Shown in pieces: positions 1,084 to 50,000 of a stretch of DNA of 64,000 nucleotides (positions are counted from its first letter, which is position 1; every line of letters starts with the position of its first letter). The position numbers were made by a program, and so were the translations under genes. The notes beneath the pieces are model-generated. The model had not been told where the DNA came from. It saw only the letters and a list, made by a program, of their open reading frames with translations, and made no database searches. The stretch lies in NCBI GenBank assembly GCA_964106645.2, contig OZ067051.1. The stretch is one strand, 5' to 3'. This DNA comes from Podarcis pityusensis (taxonomy: Eukaryota).

Positions 1084-34298
<33,215 letters not shown>

Positions 34299-36428: not shown

Positions 36429-39400
36429 AAAACCCTCTCCAAACCATGTATGTATAGCTATGGATATAACTTAGGATAATGCTTCAAGCATCTAATCAAG
36501 TGGACTTTCTAATTCCAGGGTGGCTAATTTGGGAGCTTCAGTTTGGCTATGATGATGATGATGATGATGATAATTTTTTATTTATACTAACAGCTAGAGA
36601 GCCATGAATTCCCTTTCCCTGCTCCAGAAAGCTCATGCCAGAATAAATTTTAATCCATTAGCTTCCACAAAACTGTTGCGTTTGCAGCATCAGACCAATA
36701 GGGAATATCCCTCTGCAGCATCTCCCAATATTATAATCTAGCTAACCTCAAATTATTTAGAACATATCAAATATAAGCTAGTTAAACATACTGGGAAGGT
36801 TATTCCAACTTAAGTGAGGGAAAGTCATGCAAAGTGAACCTGCTGGATCAGACCAGAGACCTATCATCTTACTGCATTCCCTGCTTGCATTCTGCCCAGC
36901 AAGAGAGCAGAAGCCCTCCTGATGTTTCCTGATAACTGGTAGCTAGAGGCAGAACATAGCCATCACAAGTGCATGGAGGCTACTTCTCTGCCTTGCAGTC
37001 TTAGGAAGACTTCACCATTCAGCAACCTAAGAGGAGGCTACTGAAGCTTTTCTGCTGTTCAATACCAATCTGTGTGAATGGACCCTGTTAATGTAAGGGC
37101 ATCTTATGCCCTAATATTTGTTAGTCTTTCAGCTGCTCCAGGAGTTGGGAGAATTGCTTGATAGACCTCAGACTGGCTGTGTAGAACAATCCATCCTGTG
37201 TAGAACCCCAAACCCAAAGAAGGGCAGTGCCAAAGAATGCTCCAACTACCACACAATTGCACTCATTTCACACGCTAGCAAGGTTATGCTTAAAATTCTA
37301 CAAGGCAGGCTTAAGCAGTATGTGGACTGAGAACTCCCAGAAGTGCAAGCTGGATTTTGAAGGGGCAGAGGAACCAGAGACCAAATTGCAAATGTGCACT
37401 GGATTATGGAGAAAGCTAGAGAGTTCCAGAAAAACACCTACTTCTGCTTCATTGACTACGCAGAAGCATTTGACTGTGTCGACCACAGCAAACAATGGCA
37501 AGTTCTTGAAGAAATGGGAGTGCCTGATCACCTCATCTGTCTCCTGAGAAATCTCTATATGGGACAAGAAGCTACAGTTAGAACTGGATATGGAACAACT
37601 GATTGGTTCAAAATTGGGAAAGGAGTACGGCAAGGCTGTATATTGTCTCCCTGCTTATTTAACTTATATGCAGAATTCATCATGTGAAAGGCTGGGCTGG
37701 ATGAATCCCAAACTGGAATTAAGATTGCCAGAAGAAATATCAACAACCTCAGATATGCAGATGACACAACCTTAACGGCAGAAAGTGAGGAGGAATTAAA
37801 GAACCTTTTAATGAAGGTGAAAGAGGAGAGCGCAAAATATGGTCTGAAGCTCAACATCAAAAAAACAAAGATCATGGCCACTGGTCCCATCACCTCCTGG
37901 CAAATAGAAGGGGAAGAAATGGAGGCAGTGAGAGATTTCACTTTCTTGGGCTCCATGATCACTGCAGATGGTGACAGCAGCCACGAAATTAAAAGACGCC
38001 TGCTCCTTGGGAGAAAAGCAGTGACAAACCTAGACAGCATCTTAAAAAGCAGAGACATCACCTTGCCAACAAAGGTCCATATAGTTAAAGCTATGGTTTT
38101 CCCAGTAATGATGTATGGAAGTGAGAGCTGGACCATCAAGAAGGCTGATCGCTGAAGAATTGATGCTTTTGAATTATGGTGCTGGAGGAGACTCTTGAGA
38201 GTCCCATGGACTGCAAGAAGATCAAACCTAACCATTCTTAAAGAAATCAGCCCTGAGTGCTCACTGGAAGGACAGATCCTGAAGCTGAGGCTCCAAGACT
38301 TTGGCCACCTCATGAGAAGAGAAGACTCCCTGGAAAAGACCCTGATGTTGGGAAAGATGGAGGGCACAAGGAGAAGGGGACGACAGAGGACGAGATGGTT
38401 GGGCAGTGTTCTCGAAGCTACCAGCATGAGTTTGACCAAACTGCGGGAGGCAGTGGAAGACAGGAGTGCCTGGCGTGCTCTGGTCCAGGGGGTCACAAAG
38501 AGTCGGACATGACTAAACAACTAAACAACAACTATGAAGTACATAAAGGCTGCTTCAACCATATGATTAGGAAGTCTACACATGTATGGAGTAGGTACAG
38601 AGACCTGTTAGAAAGAAAGAACCCATGCTGGGTATCCCCAATAGAGGTGGTAGCAATAAAAGATCAATCTGGAGGAAAAATGGGGGACATATAAGGACTT
38701 ACTGGAATTTAAGGATGACACTACCAGACTAAAAAATTGAGAGCTACTAACAGGAGTAGTCACACACTGGTTTCAGTATACTCAAGCAAGATATATAGGA
38801 GAGATAAAGAAAGAGGGTTTGTGGAAGGCGGGTCAGAGTTTGAAAAAAACACTATTAGGAAGCAACAAGAAACTTACCAAGAATATACCAAATCCTATTA
38901 GAATGGGAAACCAAAGATGAGTTAGTGAAGGCAGCAATGATACACTGGGTGTTGGATATTGGACATAATATCGAGCTATCTGCATGGGAAAAACTGGAAG
39001 ACAATAATTTTTTTGGCATGTTTCACAATTAAAGAGAATATCCAAAAAATGACCTTACAGATGGTTTCTGCCGTCCAGTAAAATTGCTAGAATGTACAAG
39101 AAAAGATCCAACTTGTGTTGGAAGTGTTCAGAAATAGAGGATATGCTAATTTATATGTGTGAATTGTAAATGTGTCCAAAAAGGGGGGAGATGGCATATA
39201 ACGAACTCAAAAAAAATCTAAGCTCACATTTCAAAAGAAACCAGAAGCCTTCTTAGAACAAATACCTAGGAAATACCAAACTGTATTCATGTATGCAATA
39301 ACTACTGCGCGAATGTGTATCTATCGAATCTATCAACAAACCCTACATTAAACGTCAACTTCCCTTCCTCCCCTTCCATGGCTCATTCCAATTTCTCCTT

Positions 39401-41225
39401 TACTGTTGCATATTTTAATTACTCCTTATTCTTTCTCTTCCAGTTTTTCCTCCATTTATAATTTTACTGCTAAATATATTCTAATCCTGCTAACATTTTA
39501 AGTTGCTTACAATAATTTTTCAAATACTCCACAATTTTTTTCTAATCTTCTTTAAAGACTTTTTGTTCCTGCTGTTATTCTATCAGTTAGGCTAGCATTA
39601 ATTTCATCTGTCATTCCTCCTTTGTTGGTATTGTGCCCTCCTTTCATTTTTTAGCGTACACCATTCAGGCTTCCGTTGTTGCATACATTAAAATATTTTT
39701 CAGATCACTGGGTATATCTGAACCAATTATTCCTAAAATAACAGCGTCTGGTATTTTTATAAAAGACCTTTTCACCCAAAAAATAATTTCATTATAAATC
39801 ATCTCTCAGAAGCCTTTCACTACTTTACATGTCCACCACATATGGCAGAAGGTACCTCAATTTTCCTTACACTTCCAGCAGTATCTAGTTCTGACTTATA
39901 CATCTTCGGCTACTTACTGGGTGCTAGATACCACCTATATATCATTTTCATACTTTTTAAATTATTTATTATTATTATTAGCCCACCATCCGGCTGGGTT
40001 TCCCCATATAATTCTCTTTTAATGTATAACATGCAGTAAATTTTAGTTCCATAGTTTATCCCATGCACTCAGTTCACTATTATATCATATATCCCTTGCC
40101 TTATGTATCATTCCTGGTTTTACCAGCACATATTTTGTTTCCCAGTCTAATAACAACTTATACATTCTAGAAATCAATTTTTCTGTGTTCTCTATAAGCT
40201 CCCTTTCAAATTGTGAGCTTTGATTCATAAAACCATTTTTTTTATTTTGAACATTTCATTCAATTTTAACTAGTCCCTTCCTGCTTCTGTAATGTCCTCA
40301 TATTTCTTAAGCTTTGCCTCTGTAAAGTTCAAAAACTTTGTGTTGCCAAGTCTCAGTCCATATTTTGTTTTTTTCAAGGAGGTTGCTTCTATGGGTGAAA
40401 GCCATAGGGTGTTTTCCTTTCCAGCAGGTTTTTGTATTTTTCCCACACTCTGGAAGCTGTGGAATTAGTTGTACCTTGTCTTAGGCTATCAATAGTTAAT
40501 CTTCCTACAATGAAATGAAGGAGGGGCCCAAAATTTGTTTGCTTTAGCTGGAGGGCAATAACATCCATTTGAAAACTGCTTGGAATAGCTGGCCAAGGTA
40601 AAGCACATGCTGGAAATTCCAAAGCATAGAAGGCTGCTATGCTTGATTTGATTTTTTACACCTTAAAAGATGTTGGAATGGTCCCATGGGGAGGAAATAA
40701 GGGATAAGAATAGGAAGAACCCTACTAGAAGTATTGTGTTGATTGAAGAGTACTCAAGAAATGCATGTAAACAAAAGTACTGTGATTCTGATGCGAAACC
40801 GAATCAGATCGTACAACTGCAGCCTATGCAACTCCCATCTATCACAGAAGCCACCCGTTTTATGAAGCATTTCACAGCCCAAGAACTTACCTGTTGCAAA
40901 CCTGTTGTAAAAAGTTATTGACTATGTGCTCGTGGGTCTTGCAGATGTTCTGCTGCAAGGTGCTCTTCATCCAGTTCTCAACGTTGCACACTTTGACTTG
41001 GCTGGAATGCCAGCAGATGGAGAGGTGGCGCAAGGCTGGTCCCAGAACAAAGTTGTTCTTGGTCAGTTCTGCAGGAGAATGAAAATGCAGCAGAGGCCAT
41101 AACGAGGGATCCTGAAAGACCCTGAACAACTTAACACAAGTCTGGGCTAAATTTTTCCTGCTCTTTTTATCCAAAAAGGAGAAGATGTGCAGAAGGCATT
41201 CCCAATTCATCTGTGTGATATGCAT
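35706..41225 (-). CDS. FBXL22: F-box and leucine-rich repeat protein 22, complete 2-exon CDS (226 aa)
   Basis: Exon 1 41225-40891 ([20 protein letters not shown]-box) joins exon 2 36051-35706 ([18 protein letters not shown] LRRs) in phase 2; position between HERC1 and USP3 matches vertebrate synteny. Confidence 0.95.
36325..36427 (+). repeat. Retroposon 3' end with (TTA)n microsatellite tail
   Basis: GGAAGCCGCCCAGAGTGG...GGGTATAAATAA followed by about 14 TTA units; inverted short copy at ~39961-40007. Confidence 0.7.
37206..38532 (+). mobile_element. BovB (RTE-clade) LINE, 5'-truncated, covering RT domain to 3' tail
   Basis: One frame encodes [12 protein letters not shown]...[29 protein letters not shown] (37754-37765), ...GVTKSRT; ends in a (CAA)-type tail; five in-frame TGA stops. 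Confidence 0.95.
38534..39325 (+). mobile_element. Decayed L1/Tx1-like LINE ORF2 3' fragment
   Basis: Remnant peptides [49 protein letters not shown]. Confidence 0.7.
39345..40465 (-). mobile_element. Second decayed L1/Tx1-like ORF2 3' fragment, opposite orientation
   Basis: Minus strand gives [41 protein letters not shown]. Confidence 0.7.
40891..41225 (-). CDS. FBXL22: FBXL22 coding exon 1 (F-box)
   Basis: ATG at 41225 in GTGGCAATG context; ends TGCAACAG|gtaagt. Confidence 0.93.
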
Positions 41226-41317
41226 TGCCACTGAGTGGCTGTAGGGAGAAGGTATGGTATGTTTCAGCAGCAAGACAGGAGGCCTGAACGGCTTCCAAGT
41301 CACTTCTGGTCTCTTGC

Positions 41318-41486
41318 ACAAATATGGTGTGGAATGGAAGCTATTTTTGGCTGCCAGCTGGCAAAGGCGTTTCAAAAAAGGGCAAGGATCAAGGGGAGGC
41401 TGGCTGCAGACTCAGTCTCTTCTCCCCGTGGAATGGCTAGAGCAGGAGCAAAATGGCTTAGTTTAGTCAAATCTTGCCTTAAAAGG
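41318..41486 (-). promoter_or_regulatory. Candidate muscle cis-regulatory module upstream of FBXL22 (CArG, MCAT x2, MEF2-like, E-box)
   Basis: CCTTAAAAGG 41477-41486; TGGAATG at 41330 and 41429; CTATTTTTGG 41341-41350; CAGCTG 41355-41360; ACAAATATGG 41318-41327. Confidence 0.55.
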
Positions 41487-43693
41487 ATTTATTTGCCTCC
41501 GAGACTATTCATGTTTAGGAGGTGGTTTCTGCTTGTTTAGAGCGCTTCCCAGCCCACCCATCTGTTTATGTCACATGATGGATAAAGCCACTACTTCCCC
41601 TGTAAAAGGTCTGAAGCTGGGTTCACATCATACCAGGACAGCTCCTGATTTCAAAGAATGGCTGTGCACCAAAGGCAGCCCACATGGGGGAGACAGCCAA
41701 GATTTACACACTATATAAATCCACTGAGATTCTACAATGCAAGTTTAAGACTCTCTGCTTCAAAGCCCTGGATGAGCAGCACCTAGTTTGCTGGACAACA
41801 GCTGGATGCAGTCATTACTTAAAAGTCAGTAGCTCTCAAATGATGGAGTGGTTATTGCTAGCTTGGTGCGGGGGGGAAGGTTCTGTTATTTTTTGTTGTG
41901 AAGGTCTCATCATGTTGCAGAATGGGACACTTCAGCTACATAGTTCACGTATTTGGTTAAACAGAGATGAGAAGTAGAGGAACTTTCCAGAGACTTCCAA
42001 GAAATGATGAGAGCTCTGAGCTTGGTTATGAGTTAAAAGGTTCACCCAGTCATTTGTGAAGTAGTTCTGCCCTCCTACCTTGCTGCCTGCCTGGATGAAA
42101 AACTACAGAACTGAAGCCCACCTTCCCATTGCTTGGGTGTGACGAGCTACTGCCAGCCAGAAGCTGCTTTAAGGCACCTGCTCCAGCACCAAAGGCTCCA
42201 GCTTGGCCTTTGTTATATTTAAACATCTCCAAGGACAGACAGACCCAGCCTGTGAGAAGAAAAGATCTGGGCAAAAATTAATCCATTCAGCTCCTTTGCA
42301 TCTTGAGGGGAGGCAGTCGTATCGTTCCCCGTGTCCTCTTTTGATTCATTATTGCATCTGTATCTCACATTTCCTTCAAGAAACTGTCTTGCCCTCTTTT
42401 TATCCTCACAAGCACCCTGTTTCTATCCAAATATGATTTTGGTTTTAAACGCAGTGTAAGGTAGTCTCTATGGGAGTATATTGTATTTAATTATGGGGTA
42501 TCAGAGTTTTTAGGGGGTTAACCAGGCTGGGATCGCTGGCTTGTTGGTTTTTGAATGTCTGATGTAGATTTTTTCAATTTTGTTGTGCTGTATGGGACAA
42601 TGGCAATAAAGATTATCGTATGGTGATGTAGGTGAAGCCATGGGACGGTGACTAGCCCAGTCACCCAGGGAGCTTCTTAATGAGTGGGGATTTGAACCCT
42701 GGTCACTCAAGGGCTAGTCTGACACACTGACCACACTTGCTCTGCAAATGCCCATCTGGGCTCTTCATGAAGCACAACCCATAGCTCCAAGTGAAACTTA
42801 TTCCCTTAAAAAGGAACAGAAAGTTCAGTGGAGGTACAAGAGAAAGGAAATGAAAGGAAGCTGTTCCTCTTGGAGCCCCTTCCAAGCTCCCCTGCTGGGG
42901 GAATGAGAGGCCGTCATTGACTGGACAGGGGCTGTTCTACAGAAAGGCTCCACACAGCTGTTCTAAATGATCAAGGATGCAAACACACAACAGCTGACTA
43001 AAAGAAATAATGCAATCTTTGTATCGAGTCTGCAAAGGGGAGGAACTTACAAGAAATATTTAGCCAAACATACTCTGCGTACATAGAAATGCCATATGTC
43101 TGGTTTTTCCTGGACACGACCTCTTTTTCATGGTCAAAATTTCTCTCCAGGCAGAATTTATAAATTTGGCAAAATGTCTGGGTTTGGCGGCTGGCTGACT
43201 GGAGCAAGGAGTTGTGCACGCAGCAGGGGAGAAGCGGCAGCAAAAAGGAGCTGTCAAATCCGGGCTCCTGCTGGAGCTGGTGTGCTTTGCCGGGACTTGG
43301 CTGGCAGGCTAGAGCTGCAACGCCAAAGCCACTTCCTCCTCCTCCTCCTCCTCTTCCACACCACCCTCCACCGGTCAGACTTAGGGCAGAGGAAACATCG
43401 GTTGTGTGTGTGGAGCATGGGGAGGCAGGCATATCCCTGGGGGAGAAGAGGGAGGAGAAGCCAGGTTCTGAGGCTGGAAAGGATCTTCCGCTGGAGCGCA
43501 GCTCCTGTAGTTTGGCCTCTCCCCTGCCCCCTTGGCTGCATCGGGCCCTGGGCATGTGGCCTTTCGGTCCCTCCAGTCTCCCTCCTTAACTTAGCAGTGG
43601 TGAAGAGTTTTCTGGAAAATTATCAGTGCTTTAAACTGATTGGAATCTAACATTTTTGGCTTACATTTAGGAAACAAAACTGAAGTATGTCAT

Positions 43694-43825
43694 TTACAGA
43701 TGGGTAGCCGTGTTGGTCTGCCATAGTCGAAATAAAAAAATTCCTTCCTGTAGCACCTTAAAGACCAACTAAGTTAGTTCTTGGTATAAGCTTTCGTGTG
43801 CATGCACACTTCTTCAGATACACAT
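43694..43825 (-). mobile_element. Short Penelope-like (PLE) terminal element with 14-bp TSD
   Basis: GGGTAGCCGTGTTGGTCTG...GCACCTTAAAGACCAAC...AAGCTTTCGTG...CTTCTTCAGATAC; TSD CTGAAGTATGTCAT at 43680-43693 and 43826-43839. Confidence 0.8.
43784..43821 (-). ncRNA. Minimal type-I hammerhead ribozyme motif
   Basis: Minus strand reads GUAU-CUGAAGA-A-GUGUG(CAUG)CACAC-GAAA-GC-UU-AUAC. Confidence 0.75.
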
Positions 43826-46800
43826 CTGAAGTATGTCATGTTCTGCATAATGAACACAAACATTGGAAGATTTCCCAATAACCTAAAAGTATTAGAAATA
43901 ATATTTAGGATTAAAAAATAAAGAAAGCTTACTTAATGTGGTTTAAATGTTATATTCCAACCGTTTCAAAGCATTACTAGGATATTATTTTTCTTTGAGT
44001 AATTGTACATATTTTGATACGTGATTGTGCTATAATAAAATGTTAACCACTTAAATGTATGCAGGTTTCCTTAGGAGGATAACCTAAGGAATGTGTCCTC
44101 TTTTTTTGCTCTTCAAAGTATGGCAATCCTGGTATACAAGTATGATCCAGTTCCGGCCTTGAAAAAAACCTGTTCCATCAGCTTTTACAAAAAGTTCCCT
44201 GCCAGCTTTCCTGGAGCTTTTCCAGGAACTTCTGTCGATTCTTACTTGCCCTGATCAAAAATGTAAATCTAGTTCATTAAAGGGCTCTTCTTCCAGAAGC
44301 TCAGGAAAACTGATTCTCACACAATGAGCACAGAGAGAAAAGACTTTAATGGCAAATCTTTCAGAGGAATATGTTCTATGAAGGAATTTGAATTGTGGCC
44401 AACAATCCCCTTCCGAAATGCTCAACAGTCCTCACCGAGGATTACACACAATATTTTAATGGCAAACAATCACAGCTATGGCACTAGAACCCCGAGGCCC
44501 CTCTCAGGCACGCAGGCACCAAAGGGTATTCAAGATGCAGATCACCACTCCAGTGAGAGCGAGAGAGTGAAAGAGAGAGAACGGGGGGGGGGGGGGGAGA
44601 GAGAAAAGCACCACACTGCCATTTCCAACCAGTCACCACAAGTGCCTGAAAGTCTGACTGCCTCTTACCTTTGTAGTTGGGTCTTAGTTGCCTAATCCTT
44701 TTGTCTGTGGAATGGAAACACTCTGGTCCATCAACAGAACTTCCTAGGCAGAGCACCTTTGGGGTGGTGGACCATTTGTGAAGCAGACAGGCTTCATCTT
44801 GCAGGAAATGGGGTGGGTGGAGGGGGGGTAAGACAGGGCATGGTTCCCAACAACTACACAGGGGAGCAACCTTTAATTGGGAAGTGTTGATAACTAGCGT
44901 GAACTAAGCCAGTGCTTTTTCAGAGAGCATCTCTAGTGCTTACCTATATTACCAGCTGCACATTCCTGCCCATAACTGTCACTGGCTGGCAGTGCTACAC
45001 CTGGCAGCTGAGGGGGCAGAACTGAAAAAGTCCCCCCACCCTCCCCTTTAGACTCAGGTTATACAAACAAGGGTAAAAATAAAATACTAATCCATGCGCA
45101 GTACACACTTTGACTGCTTCAAATCTGTCACTTTGACACGACTCACTGAGTATAATCCAGCGGATAAGGAAATCTCCACCAGGAAGAGAAATAACTTGTG
45201 TTGCCACAACTCACTGATTAGACATTTGCGTTTGCAGGGGTGGGTGGAGCTAAATTAGGAAAAGGCTTCTTTGTCCAAACTGACGTGCCTGAGCCACCAC
45301 ACAGCCGGCTTCAAAAACAGGAACAAGTAAGTGCATTGCATTTCAACTGCCACATTCCAAAAAGAAAGAAGGTCTTCACACAGGGGAAAGATACCATGAC
45401 AAAAAAGGAGGAGGGGAAGAGGGAGGCAAAAGGTGGAAGAGAAAGGGGAGAAATGAGAACCAGACCCAGCTATTTAACATAGCCAATTTTTAAGAAAGGC
45501 ACATTTACATTACTTTCTGAAGCTTCCTCCTTAATTCCAGCAGGAGCTGGTGCTGAGGAAATATAGCACATAGTGTGACCTGATGTTTTCGCTCTGCCTC
45601 CTCACTTAAGCAGATGCTAATTCAGGGTTACAACCCCAGGGAACTTGATCATAACCCTACCATGGACCCTTTGGGCATCACTGAGGTTCATTACAAACTC
45701 CAGCGACCTGATTCTCTTCTCTACTTTGAAACCCTGGGGTGAACATAGCACCACAAAATGGTGCTATAATTTCCTATTGGGTGTGTGAAAAAGCAATCAA
45801 GTATGTGTAAACCACATGGGCACAATCTGAGGGGGCCAGCCTCTCCTCAAAATAGCCAGAGTTGCAAGAGAGCATCCTTCTGTCCATTTGAACTAGTCGG
45901 TGAGAGCCAAAATCCCTGCTGGGCTGGGCTCCTTACAACTGTAAACCAAATCTGCAGCAACAAACCACAAGATGCAGAGCAAAGAAATGCCAACAAGGAA
46001 CCCAGCATTGCAATGCTGCAACAGGGATTATTAATACTAGTGAAGACTATAGTCTCTACATTTGCAGTCACCCAAGACTGCTGCTTCCATGATACAGGGA
46101 TGGCAATTTTACCTATTCCATTCTACCTTCAAGGCATCACAAGACAAAAGGATGCATGATAGTATTACAAGATGGATTATACACACAGTTCTAATCTTAA
46201 TGGAAAGACTAGCAAATCCTGAATTTTCTCAGCTTTTTTATAGCTTAATTGCTGTAGAACACTAATCTTTCCTCTTGCTTTAAAGGAGAAATGAAAAAAT
46301 GGAGCAAATTCCTATTATAAACAATGAAGCCAGCTACTAAAGTACAGAGAATTTTGAAAGAAAGCAGCCTCCAAAGACAAAGAGTAGCAGCGATTACATG
46401 GCCTGTTGAATGAGGCCACAATTCATACACTCCTTTTCTTTTTACAGGCAGCCAAACAACTGTCCACACATAAAGTGTTTGGTACAAGTCCTTGATCTTA
46501 AGAAAAAAAGCCTTCCCAAACAGCTGAAAGCCTCCAGACTATTTCATAATTAGGTACACAAATGTGCTTATTAGAAAGATTCAAGTTTCTTTGATGTAAA
46601 TGTGCCTTCAGAAAGCAAACTCCAACATTGATATACAATGATATACAAAGTCAAACAACTAAAGTAGCTCTTGAAACAATATATATAAATTGGGTTGAAG
46701 TAGCAAATGAGGTGTTGTTTTTTTCCTGGTATGACTAACAACAGTTAGCTTGTGTCCATGTTAACAAATCAAATACTCTACTACTGACAAAATAAAACCA

Positions 46801-46921
46801 GAACCCACAAGAAAAAAAATGAAAAGTGCACAATGAAATCAAGAGTCTTGGATCAAGTATCTGTGGAGGATTGGAAATGTTTTGTCTGATGGACTTGATA
46901 TGCACAGGGCAGGAAGAGGTA

Positions 46922-47087
46922 TTAAAGTTTATCAGATGCTGATTTGGCCTGCCGGTCTACATAGAAGAGGATGTAAGCCTTGGCTTTCACCACCGTCTCC
47001 TCATCAGTCAGCGTCACGGTGCTGTCATTGAAATGGAACCATCGGCCTTCATGAGTCGCATAGGCTGTATAATGTCCAGAGCCAACC
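46922..47087 (-). CDS. USP3: USP3 last coding exon with His box ([22 protein letters not shown]...SASDKL*)
   Basis: cag|GGTT...TAA; ORF 46922-47107. Confidence 0.95.
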
Positions 47088-50000
47088 CTGAGAACATCAA
47101 GAAACATAGCATGAGGGAAATTAACTCACTGCTTTCTATTTTAAAAATAAGGCTAAGAGGTCATGGGGAAGGATCCTGGTTTTAGCTATTTCCTTCACCT
47201 TAAAATACTTGCCATGCCTCAGCTGCCTTTTCCTTCATTGGATACATCCAACGCAAACACTGATATGAAACATTTCCAGAATGCCTTCTAATGTTCAGGA
47301 GCCTTAGGCACATAGCCATGCAAAGATAAACGCAGCCTGTTAGTGGAAGAGGTTCTCTCCTCCTGCTCACTCTCAAGGCTGGGCTTATGCAAGGCTGAAG
47401 CATCCACTGGGAAAAGTCTGCACCCCTTCAGTCCTGCCTGCTCAAGGGCTGGGGCAGCATCCATTGGGCGTGCTCTCCATTAGTTTGGTCTTCACTGCCT
47501 TACTTTTTGACTGGAATACTTCTCTACTTCTATTCCCAGCATTTACTTAGCCAAGGCGGAAAATGACCCGTCTCCTTAAATGTGCCAGCAGTTTAACCCA
47601 TAATCAACCAGCCAGGGTCCCCACAATGCCTGGTGCATGAAGCAAGAGTGGCTACCCCTCCCCATGTCATAGAGAAAATAAATATGACTTATTTAGTTGG
47701 TGCTGTTGGCTTATTCAGGAAGAACCTCAGGCCCTGTTTTTGCCAGAAGCTATTCAGCACTGCATTTTCTTTTTCTGTTGCTACAAGCAGGAGCCCTTTT
47801 GGGGTCATGGGACTTGCCCAGGGCCACATAACAAGTGGAACAGTGGAACCCACATCTCAGGCCCAAGTCTAACAGACCAGCCACTAATCAGCCTACATCA
47901 TTTTTGAGAGTGTAGCCTGGTCAGTTACAGTCAGACCATATAATGTGAAGCCAGCTGGATTGTAATCCATTCAGGGTTTTGGGAAAGAACCAAGATCCCA
48001 CATTTAAATAGTTCTAATTCTGAATTATCTTTTTGTGTGTTAATTTATGTTGACTCCAATCTAGATCAAGAGGCATTTGTCTTCTAGATATGAGAGCTCT
48101 CCTTTTGAAAAAAAATAACAGCTCCTCTGACAACAAGCTGCTTCTCACCTGGATGACTGCACTTTTAAACAAAAAATCAAATGTGACCAGCTACCTCTCA
48201 TGTAGGAATTAAATGTATTTCCATTTCATTTAAGTAACTCAAATAAGATTGTGAAGTATAAAATTTCTATCAGGACCACAGACAATATTTTCAGGCAAAG
48301 CGTTGCATCTCTTTATTGATTTATTAAACTTAAAAGGGGAATTAACAAGATAAGCAAAGCTAACAAGGTCATTCTGCATAGATTAGGTTGACATAGCAAG
48401 GCTCCCTCTCTAGTCACCATTTCCAGTTGTTCCCATGCATTCTTTTTCAATTAATGCCTGGTTCCCAATGGAGTGATGCAGGTTTTACAGCAGAGAAGCC
48501 TTTCAATCATCAACTCAGAAAGGCAAAAGAGCCTTCAGGGTCCAATCATACTCACCCTGAACCGTGGTGCACCACCACAGCTGCAAGGTCATACAGACAG
48601 CTTTCTGGACCACTGTTTTCTGGCTGCAATTGGGAGGGGGACAAGGAAGAGAGACAAGAGAGAAGAGGAATTGAGAATTTCCCAGCAGCATTCCAGGGCC
48701 CCTGACTAGCAGCTCCCCATGACAAGTCACTGTACCTCTAGCAAGTAACATTTCATGTCTAGGCCTCTCAGGGGAAACTCAACATACGTGTCCACTTTGT
48801 TCCTCAGATAAGCTGTCCAGTGAAAGCGTTTTAGATGTAAGCACAGCACCTGTGGAATTAAAAATGGCACATAAGCCGAAGGACATGCCACAAATTCCTT
48901 AATGGAGGAGTACTTTAAAAACAACAGACCTGCCACCTCCTCTGCATGTCAAGAGCATATCATAGCAAAGTAGCTGTCACATTTATACCCACATGATCCT
49001 AGCAGAAACTTCCAAGTTTGCTTAAAGATAAAATTCCAGAAATAAAACATTTCCCCTCCTCCCCCCAAAAGGCCCATATGTAGTAGCAAAAACGACAAAG
49101 TACTGCAGCTCTGAGATACAAGCTATTTTACCGCAGAATGAACACTGAAGCAACATCCCACTTCAGGTTTGGGGTGTGCATTCACTTTGGTCAAAGCGTG
49201 CACTTTCAAAGTGGCTTGTTTTGAAAAGATTTGGCCCTTCTCTGACGCAAATCAGAATCTCTGACGCTTCTTCCAAGGCTTCCAAGGGACAGGCAACAAG
49301 TTTAAACTTTTCTCTACAAGCTCTCCACAATAGAAAAGGCCAGGCATGAAAGAGAAGTTCATTTTGTGACTGACAGCTCTAACTTCCAACCAAAGAATGA
49401 CTTTAGAAGGAATGTCTTCAATCATATAGGAAGGATGATAAAGTAATATGACAGACCTGTGCCACTGTTTTCCATTTCCCTGTGCTAGTTCATTCTCTTA
49501 GCAGCAGTAACACTGGAAGAGTGGTGGCTGGGTTTTTTTTTGGGGGGGGGGGTTTGCTTGTGATATGAATATCTCCTTATGCCAATCAAAATCACTCTCT
49601 CACTAAGACCCTTCCTTTAAAACTCCAGTCCCTTGAATCCTAATTTTTAAATAATTCCTCTTGTCTGAGTCTGTTCTATCTTGAGTGTTGCTTATTATCA
49701 GGTAAGTCGTTTCTGCTCATCTCTAAACCCAGCTGTGCTGGCTGAGGCAAATAGGGAGCTGTAGTCCAAATTATATGGGAGGCACCAGTTTGCAGAAGGC
49801 TGAGATCCATAATCTTTTACAAATTTCAACTCCTAGATCTCACCTTTGGTAGTTTCTGAATCCAAAATTTCTTGGTGGACTTTTGCTTCTTTTTACATTT
49901 GTGGCACATATAGAGCTCTGTTTCATCAAGTTCTTCCAGGTCTGTAAAACTGCGAAGACAATCTAGAACAATTGAATTGACATGATTAAAGTCATTTCCT

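Follow-up and report, generated by a model that had tools for sequence, protein, structure and literature searches.

Minimal hammerhead ribozymes (min-HHRs) occur in the pseudo-long terminal repeats (pLTRs) of metazoan Penelope-like elements (PLEs); reported cases include the fish elements Neptune and Poseidon, as well as turtle and snakes (PMC4209133). In the Anolis Poseidon element PAc, the protein cuts and extends both strands, two internal reverse transcriptase (RT) starts bound the tail, and hammerhead cleavage is neither needed nor observed without the protein (PMC11167929). Copies of PLEs that encode an endonuclease (EN+) often show an inverted 5'-truncated copy, a one-sided tail of 30 to 40 bp and a target-site duplication (TSD) (PMC8557442, PMC3846280). 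Here, we analyzed a 132-bp insertion with a hammerhead motif in a stretch of 64,000 nucleotides from Podarcis pityusensis (contig OZ067051.1 of assembly GCA_964106645.2; in the following, the window), which a sequence-only reading had regarded as a candidate self-cleaving terminator or insulator between two genes. We conclude that the insert is very probably a PLE stub that belongs to a set of about 2,000 near-identical copies across the genome, likely inert at this locus and absent there from the other samples compared.

The motif lies on the minus strand and was found, by inspection of the sequence and a descriptor scan, to be the minimal type-I hammerhead described earlier: the CUGANGA and GAAA core, the UH site and helices I and II are all present. 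It is the sole match to the minimal-hammerhead descriptor on either strand of the 64 kb. An Rfam scan of positions 40000 to 48000 (E <= 10), which had been proposed as a confirmation, returned eight weak matches, none of them a hammerhead and none on the insert, and a blastn match at 10761-10780 was discarded as a weak, 20-nt chance match without a hammerhead core. With the published min-HHRs the insert shares the unpaired nucleotide between A9 and G10.1, the G10.1-C11.1 pair, a 4-bp helix I and a palindromic remnant of helix III, and here, too, truncated PLEs account for thousands of motifs per genome, most of them single (PMC4209133). Unlike the 7 to 8 bp of the Schistosoma families, helix II has 5 bp; compared with the families in the same report, the subfamily of the insert is very uniform, i.e., young, and has U17 where the larger sister group has C. 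The insert is a member of the class of truncated PLE pLTR copies with min-HHRs, and an ordinary young transposon stub.

Position 17 separates two sub-lineages genome-wide, with C in 7,089 copies and U in 3,061. Both the window insert and the near-identical young subfamily have U17, which also extends the palindrome to 6 nt (base L063:4952 of the parent element described below). Cleavage is expected to be slower with U17 than with C17; a ranking of NUH triplets by cleavage was not found in the literature searched. Variation of the hammerhead is mostly confined to loop II, judging by the 100 matches that come first among the 8,432 obtained with a pattern that fixed the outer stem pairs, in a family too young for covariation.

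The insert was correctly delimited in the sequence-only reading, and a sequence check confirmed the perfect 14-bp direct repeat CTGAAGTATGTCAT on both sides, with a spacing of 146. Taken alone, this repeat is weak evidence of a TSD, as four 14-bp repeats spaced by 50 to 400 nt occur in the window. The sequencing runs used were X1 and X2, DNA runs of organism A that are closest to the window by shared words (0.91 and 0.84), and X15 and X23, runs of a relative, organism F (the RNA nature of X15 is a guess); 6 to 12% of each raw run was read. A search for runs that contain this stretch listed none recorded as RNA, a blank that counts neither for nor against transcription. Contigs from both organism A runs and from X15 join position 43679 to 43826 with exactly 146 bases missing (depths of 18.8 in X1, 33.8 in X2 and 3.9 in X15), and the 14 letters fit on both sides of the join, so the repeat is a true TSD. 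In X1 and X2, the stretch 43367-44126 is covered by one uninterrupted contig, with a depth close to that of the flanks. The proposal that the insertion is young was thereby strengthened, and the family adds to it: among the copies analyzed below, the mean identity to the parent is 99.1%, and 42 of 100 arms are at 100%. Fixation or conservation at the orthologous site, as expected of a domesticated ribozyme, was not seen, the site being empty in X1, X2 and X15. A further direct repeat in the window, at 29699-29900, is imperfect, has a 154-bp period and is at least 40 nt long, and is for these reasons a tandem unit and not a TSD.

An exact 28-mer of the insert gave 1,995 matches in the genome and a looser hammerhead core pattern gave 8,432, with 0 in the control for each. 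Among 40 candidates scored, 41 matches showed 100% identity over 131 to 132 nt (14 over 132 nt, including the window copy, and 27 over 131). By following other copies beyond the 3' end of the insert, we reached full parent elements at two loci, L063 and L061 (L numbers denote stretches of the source genome, G000, and C1 is a contig), which self-alignments revealed to be arrays of the form pLTR-open reading frame (ORF)-pLTR. In blastn, L063:4917-5049 matched the window over 133 nt at 99.2%, including 3 TSD bases. The parent ORFs of L063 and L061 carry an RVT_1 domain (E of 1e-12 and 2.4e-12) and, at the C terminus, a GIY-YIG domain (3.1e-5 and 6.4e-5), all above the Pfam cut-offs; the L061 ORF is open for 874 amino acids up to the edge of the fetched stretch, and in L063 the middle ORF is interrupted close to its start by an in-frame stop. 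The insert is thus Penelope-derived, as had been suspected, and comes from the pLTR/ORF-start junction of an RT and GIY-YIG element of the same genome; its identity with this junction of L063 argues against the idea of a non-autonomous ribozyme retroelement. The parent proteins contain the CX4CX2C linker CNKPRCQLC and the motif IVY-CQQC-YIG with histidines downstream (CCHH). A CX2-5CxxC linker before GIY-YIG together with CCHH defines Neptune and Nematis (PMC8557442), and the linker distinguishes the parent from Penelope and Poseidon. On these motifs, which it shares with Nematis, the parent appears to be Neptune-like. No relevant published account of this PLE family in lizards was found in the literature searched. 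At L061 (G000:C1:104630500-104640000), near-identical full-length PLE copies alternate in direct and inverted orientation with a 4,686-bp period, and the stretch has an assembly gap.

All pLTR positions are numbered from +1, the A of an initiator (Inr)-like TTCAGT in L063 that lies 30 nt downstream of a TATATAG. The insert spans the parent from just below this TATA/Inr-like motif to ORF codon 10, since the ATG is at +101 and the insert ends at +131; two junction bases at its 5' end are absent from the parent. As in other EN+ PLEs, the pLTR thus includes the first ORF codons, and the segment that holds them in the window corresponds roughly to the 30- to 40-nt tail between the two 3'-end clusters described below. 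The positions of all features are given in Table 1.

Table 1. Features of the insert, its flanks and the neighboring genes (window coordinates; gene names in parentheses are presumed)
Feature	Position	Strand	Basis or remark
TSD, copy at the element's 3' end	43680..43693		Direct repeat; single copy in the empty allele, 146 skipped
TSD, copy at the element's 5' end	43826..43839		Direct repeat; empty allele; fold
PLE stub: parent +2..+131 (43823-43694) plus two junction bases (43825-43824)	43694..43825	-	blastn vs L063
PLE ORF, first 10 codons, MADQHGYPSV	43694..43724	-	Translation; L061 ORFs share the N terminus; ATG at +101
Minimal type-I hammerhead motif	43784..43821	-	Sequence, descriptor scan, fold of the insert alone
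Hammerhead stem I, GUAU/AUAC	43821-43818/43787-43784	-	Sequence
Hammerhead core CUGAAGA	43817-43811	-	Sequence
Hammerhead stem II, 5 bp, 4-nt loop, after a bulged A	43809-43796	-	Sequence
Hammerhead GAAA	43795-43792	-	Sequence; followed by GC
U16.1/U17 (UU)	43789-43788	-	Predicted cut between 43788 and 43787
Predicted 8-bp hairpin masking the catalytic core, 43831-43824 with 43819-43812	43812..43831	-	ViennaRNA
UCH gene (USP3), stop and main 3' untranslated region (UTR) according to the relative's RNA	44408..46924	-	X15 contig, X23 stranded depth
F-box gene (FBXL22), first coding exon, ATG at 41225	40890..41225	-	PF12937, E 3.7e-8; X15 contig 40891-41727

To characterize the ends of the family, we took the 100 matches that come first among the 1,995, corresponding to 74 loci in the first 59 Mb of contig C1, with an anchor that requires +25..+52. 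Sixty of the 100 5' ends fall at -2..+6, 11 at +7..+25, 11 at -3..-250 and 18 further upstream, and the commonest single end is the one seen in the window, +2 (26 copies). The 3' ends form two clusters, with 53 at +85-107 and 44 at +126-146, and only 3 lie elsewhere. A TSD of 9 to 16 nt was present at 47 of 57 short loci. These ends resemble those of PAc, in which the hammerhead also lies near the pLTR/ORF junction, the RNA template is unprocessed, and genomic 3' ends fall at two ORF-start sites about 30 to 40 nt apart; in contrast to PAc, the ORF of which begins at stem II, the parent ATG follows 63 nt downstream of the cleavage position, and the presumed RT starts lie near +95 and +131 in pLTR numbering (PMC11167929). 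Copies starting at +2 are mostly preceded by a T that is absent from the parent. At the 5' junctions of L005, L010, L025, L028, L029, L138 and others, short stutter repeats of the element's first 2 to 12 nt were observed, which look as though the RT re-aligns at the template end.

Twenty-four of the 74 loci, a sample that had not been selected by its ends, hold two copies head to head, and each of these 24 pairs combines one early with one late 3' end (P = 4.8e-8 if the ends were independent). When 38 apparent single-arm loci were examined for abortive second arms, a further five pairs were recognized by eye (L114, L117, L133, L139 and L142), whose full inverted arms the anchor had missed, as well as one abortive arm of 12 nt (L072); all six obey the same early/late rule. 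At the window locus, no abortive second arm was found, an inverted arm being missing or at most 2 to 8 nt long. In a second set of 53 loci (7 of 60 were dropped as duplicates or as the window itself), half of them chosen for a late end and scored with wider classes (early up to +110, late +111-150), the rule held for 33 of 34 pairs, with L049 as a true early/early exception. The window copy departs from the EN+ anatomy described above, to which its sister copies conform, in being a single-arm minimal form without ORF body or inverted arm.

Since the anchor excludes copies that start at the hammerhead cut (+37/+38), these were counted separately. The segment +38..+80 is held by 2,001 copies, 1,932 of which also hold +30..+37 and so extend across the cut site; at most 69 (3.4%) could start at the cut. 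These 1,932 copies were thus not copied from self-cleaved RNA.

A course of events consistent with these data can be proposed. The parent would be transcribed from the TATA/Inr of its pLTR, so that the hammerhead would fall within the 5'-most 41 nt of the RNA. The target would then be cut by the element's nuclease in a staggered fashion, with 14 bp between the nicks, as the duplication suggests. Based on the family ends and on in vitro work with another PLE, the uncleaved RNA would be copied by the RT from an internal start near +131, in ORF codon 10, up to run-off at the 5' end at +2, and the second target strand would receive a second, inverted cDNA, which ends near +95 in many sister copies. 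The resulting stub, which has no TATA box, no ORF body and no second hammerhead, is for that reason probably a dead end. In its most specific form, the proposal says that one protein dimer hands the two cut strands to different RNA starts (about +95 and about +131) and never to the same one, that synthesis of both cDNAs ends by run-off at a TATA-driven 5' end situated just above the uncleaved hammerhead, and that the window insert is a one-armed product; this version may equally well hold or fail. One-sided tails have already been published as "often" seen, and inverted 5' copies have been described as well (PMC8557442, PMC3846280), and neither the strict one-early/one-late rule nor the run-off explanation was found in the published literature searched.

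Several points weigh against the account given so far, in addition to the clade assignment by motifs. No pile-up of RNA starts is listed at +1 (L063:4916); the nearest, of 13 molecules at a depth of 45, is at 4904 and was seen in one of four runs. Penelope of Drosophila virilis, the one PLE with a mapped promoter, uses a TATA-less internal promoter (PMC2377424); a putative TATA/Inr has been described for Pen2a of Adineta (PMC3846280). Logan contigs can drop an allele, so that X1 and X2 demonstrate the empty allele and not the absence of a filled one, and organism A is the closest match to the window without being proven conspecific. Low-level RNA or DNA crosses the empty site in X15, at a depth of 2 to 12 vs 93 for the neighboring 3' UTR, and the RNA comes from a relative without the insert, so that the transcripts seen never carry it. 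Finally, the folding discussed below is secondary-structure prediction only.

The +2 end could have another cause within the same general origin, namely a 3' splice site (TTTCAG before +3) or stalling and fold-back of the RT at a hairpin that spans -12..+16. In D. virilis, an intron has been mapped that ends at the 5' end of helix I (PMC4209133); the parent, when 100 nt of upstream sequence are included, is predicted to fold a hairpin over the core; and inverted PLE ends have been proposed to arise by self-priming on palindromes (PMC3846280). The most frequent 5' end, however, is +2, one base above the would-be exon start, the 8 copies that start at +3 share no upstream exon, and no splice joint is listed in four RNA runs of the relative over L063:4500-7740, where no ends at the cut are listed either. 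Fold-back, moreover, does not account for the finding that the two arms never share an end site. We regard these variants as unlikely.

The family also contains tandem arrays of 178- to 186-nt units, each consisting of the 3' part of the pLTR and the ORF start, with up to four units (L013, L051, L055 and L060). Arrays were noticed as well among L031-L060 and L064-L066, and a 202-codon open frame runs through the one at L065. Such units recall the non-LTR retrozymes of animals, which share with the insert a PLE-derived type-I hammerhead and a long TSD and have a reptile consensus averaging 176 bp (PMC7229834, 10.64898/2026.07.22.740005), and they would suit a reading of the insert as a monomer of a self-propagating retrozyme with a tandem unit of about 180 nt that spreads via self-cleaved circular RNA. 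The window copy, however, is a single piece of 132 bp, shorter than one unit, while an active retrozyme needs at least two tandem hammerhead units. The array units, which vary in length, join at +2..+5 rather than at the cut site, few copies could start at the cut, and the two end sites of solo stubs and full-length copies recur at the ends of the arrays, which suggests that the parent RNA was copied repeatedly at its 5' end. In the natural tandem copy L013, the minimum free energy structure lacks a double-hammerhead fold, the stems II being paired across units instead. A retrozyme origin is very improbable compared with derivation from uncleaved parent RNA.

Both flanking genes were examined at the level of Pfam domains. 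The names USP3 and FBXL22 come from the sequence-only reading and are presumed to be correct. The insert lies on the minus strand, like both genes, as had been stated, 3,097 bp from the stop codon (46922-46924) in the last exon of the UCH-domain gene; the F-box ATG is 2,469 bp from its near edge and 2,600 bp from its far edge. In organism F, the USP3 3' UTR is covered by one X15 contig (44408-47088, depth of 93), and the stranded depth of X23 is 6.4 to 35.4 over 44336-47208 and then 0.94 to 1.24 over 43894-44335, with ATTAAA signals at 44460 and 44350 near this fall. The fall below 44336 places the end of the relative's main USP3 mRNA some 600 nt ahead of the insert site. No pile-up of RNA ends at the cut is listed in the relative's runs, which consist of fragmented reads from a species without this insert.

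In RNA entering from the USP3 side, the hammerhead core is predicted to be masked by the flank: CUUCAG, the last six bases of the TSD copy on the minus strand, and the two junction bases pair with AUCUGAAG in ViennaRNA folds. Across five flank lengths, the probability of stem I was 0.0 and that of an active-like structure, P(active-like), 1e-5 to 1e-10, compared with 0.05 to 0.07 for the insert's 5' end alone or for parent +1..+60 and +1..+140. With 60-nt flanks, the window copy had a P(active-like) of 2.1e-8, the lowest of 23 solo copies (two of 25 lacked the exact motif and were dropped). For the parent, the predicted value was 0.004 in read-through RNA vs 0.066 in RNA starting at +1, since the sequence just above +1 (L063:4904-4931) is expected from the folds to form pairs with the core of the hammerhead.

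Cleavage of USP3 read-through RNA by the hammerhead, which would make the insert a terminator or insulator before FBXL22, perhaps with the help of the PLE protein or of trans-dimerization with further copies of the motif, deserves almost no credence: the core is intact, the strand is that of both genes, the site lies where nascent RNA would pass, and the Anolis Poseidon hammerhead cleaves once the element's protein is added (PMC11167929), but the empty site in both organism A runs and X15 means that the insert is not needed, the relative's USP3 RNA ends upstream, the core is predicted to be masked, no second motif that could serve as a dimer partner exists in the 64 kb, and position 17 is the rarer U. 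Published precedents are a single Schistosoma min-HHR that did not cleave (PMC4209133), amphibian retrozyme hammerheads that need dimers for high rates (PMC7229834) and Xenopus dimers, 8 of 9 of which did not cleave (10.64898/2026.07.22.740005). Nascent RNA would pass the site, which follows the main USP3 3' end at a distance of about 600 nt. RNA polymerase II runs past poly(A) sites. The stub is likely inert at this locus, and no functional role is supported; as one of 1,995 28-mer matches at a site that is empty elsewhere, it can hardly be upheld as the best unannotated functional element of the window.

A few further observations concern transcription of the parent and the surroundings of the insert. 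Over the stub region of the parent, reads of the relative represent both strands about equally, as expected because copies sit inside host transcripts, and the hammerhead reads in X23 are mostly C17 (523 of 586). In the same run, the 3' half of the PLE ORF (L063:5808-7660) is covered mainly in sense, at a depth of 7.6 to 50.9, and the 5' half is almost empty. Between the two genes, depth spikes in the DNA runs mark additional high-copy repeats at 42347-42788 and about 44090-44130. A 954-nt X15 contig (depth of 12; RNA by guess) covers 42551-43491, an intergenic, partly GC-rich segment upstream of the F-box gene that has almost no coverage in X23. Broken RT-like frames at 37555-38520 resemble a fragment of an RTE/BovB long interspersed element.

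The locus itself matters little: it is a recent, probably unfixed stub and at most a presence/absence marker. If true, the terminator reading would mean that a ribozyme terminator had newly arisen between two genes, but the evidence speaks against it. For PLE specialists, the family has some value. It is very young, its near-identical copies number about 2,000, and its ORFs are open over long distances. Its end numbers, i.e., two RT starts, one 5' end and the early/late rule, could be tested in an existing in vitro PLE assay.

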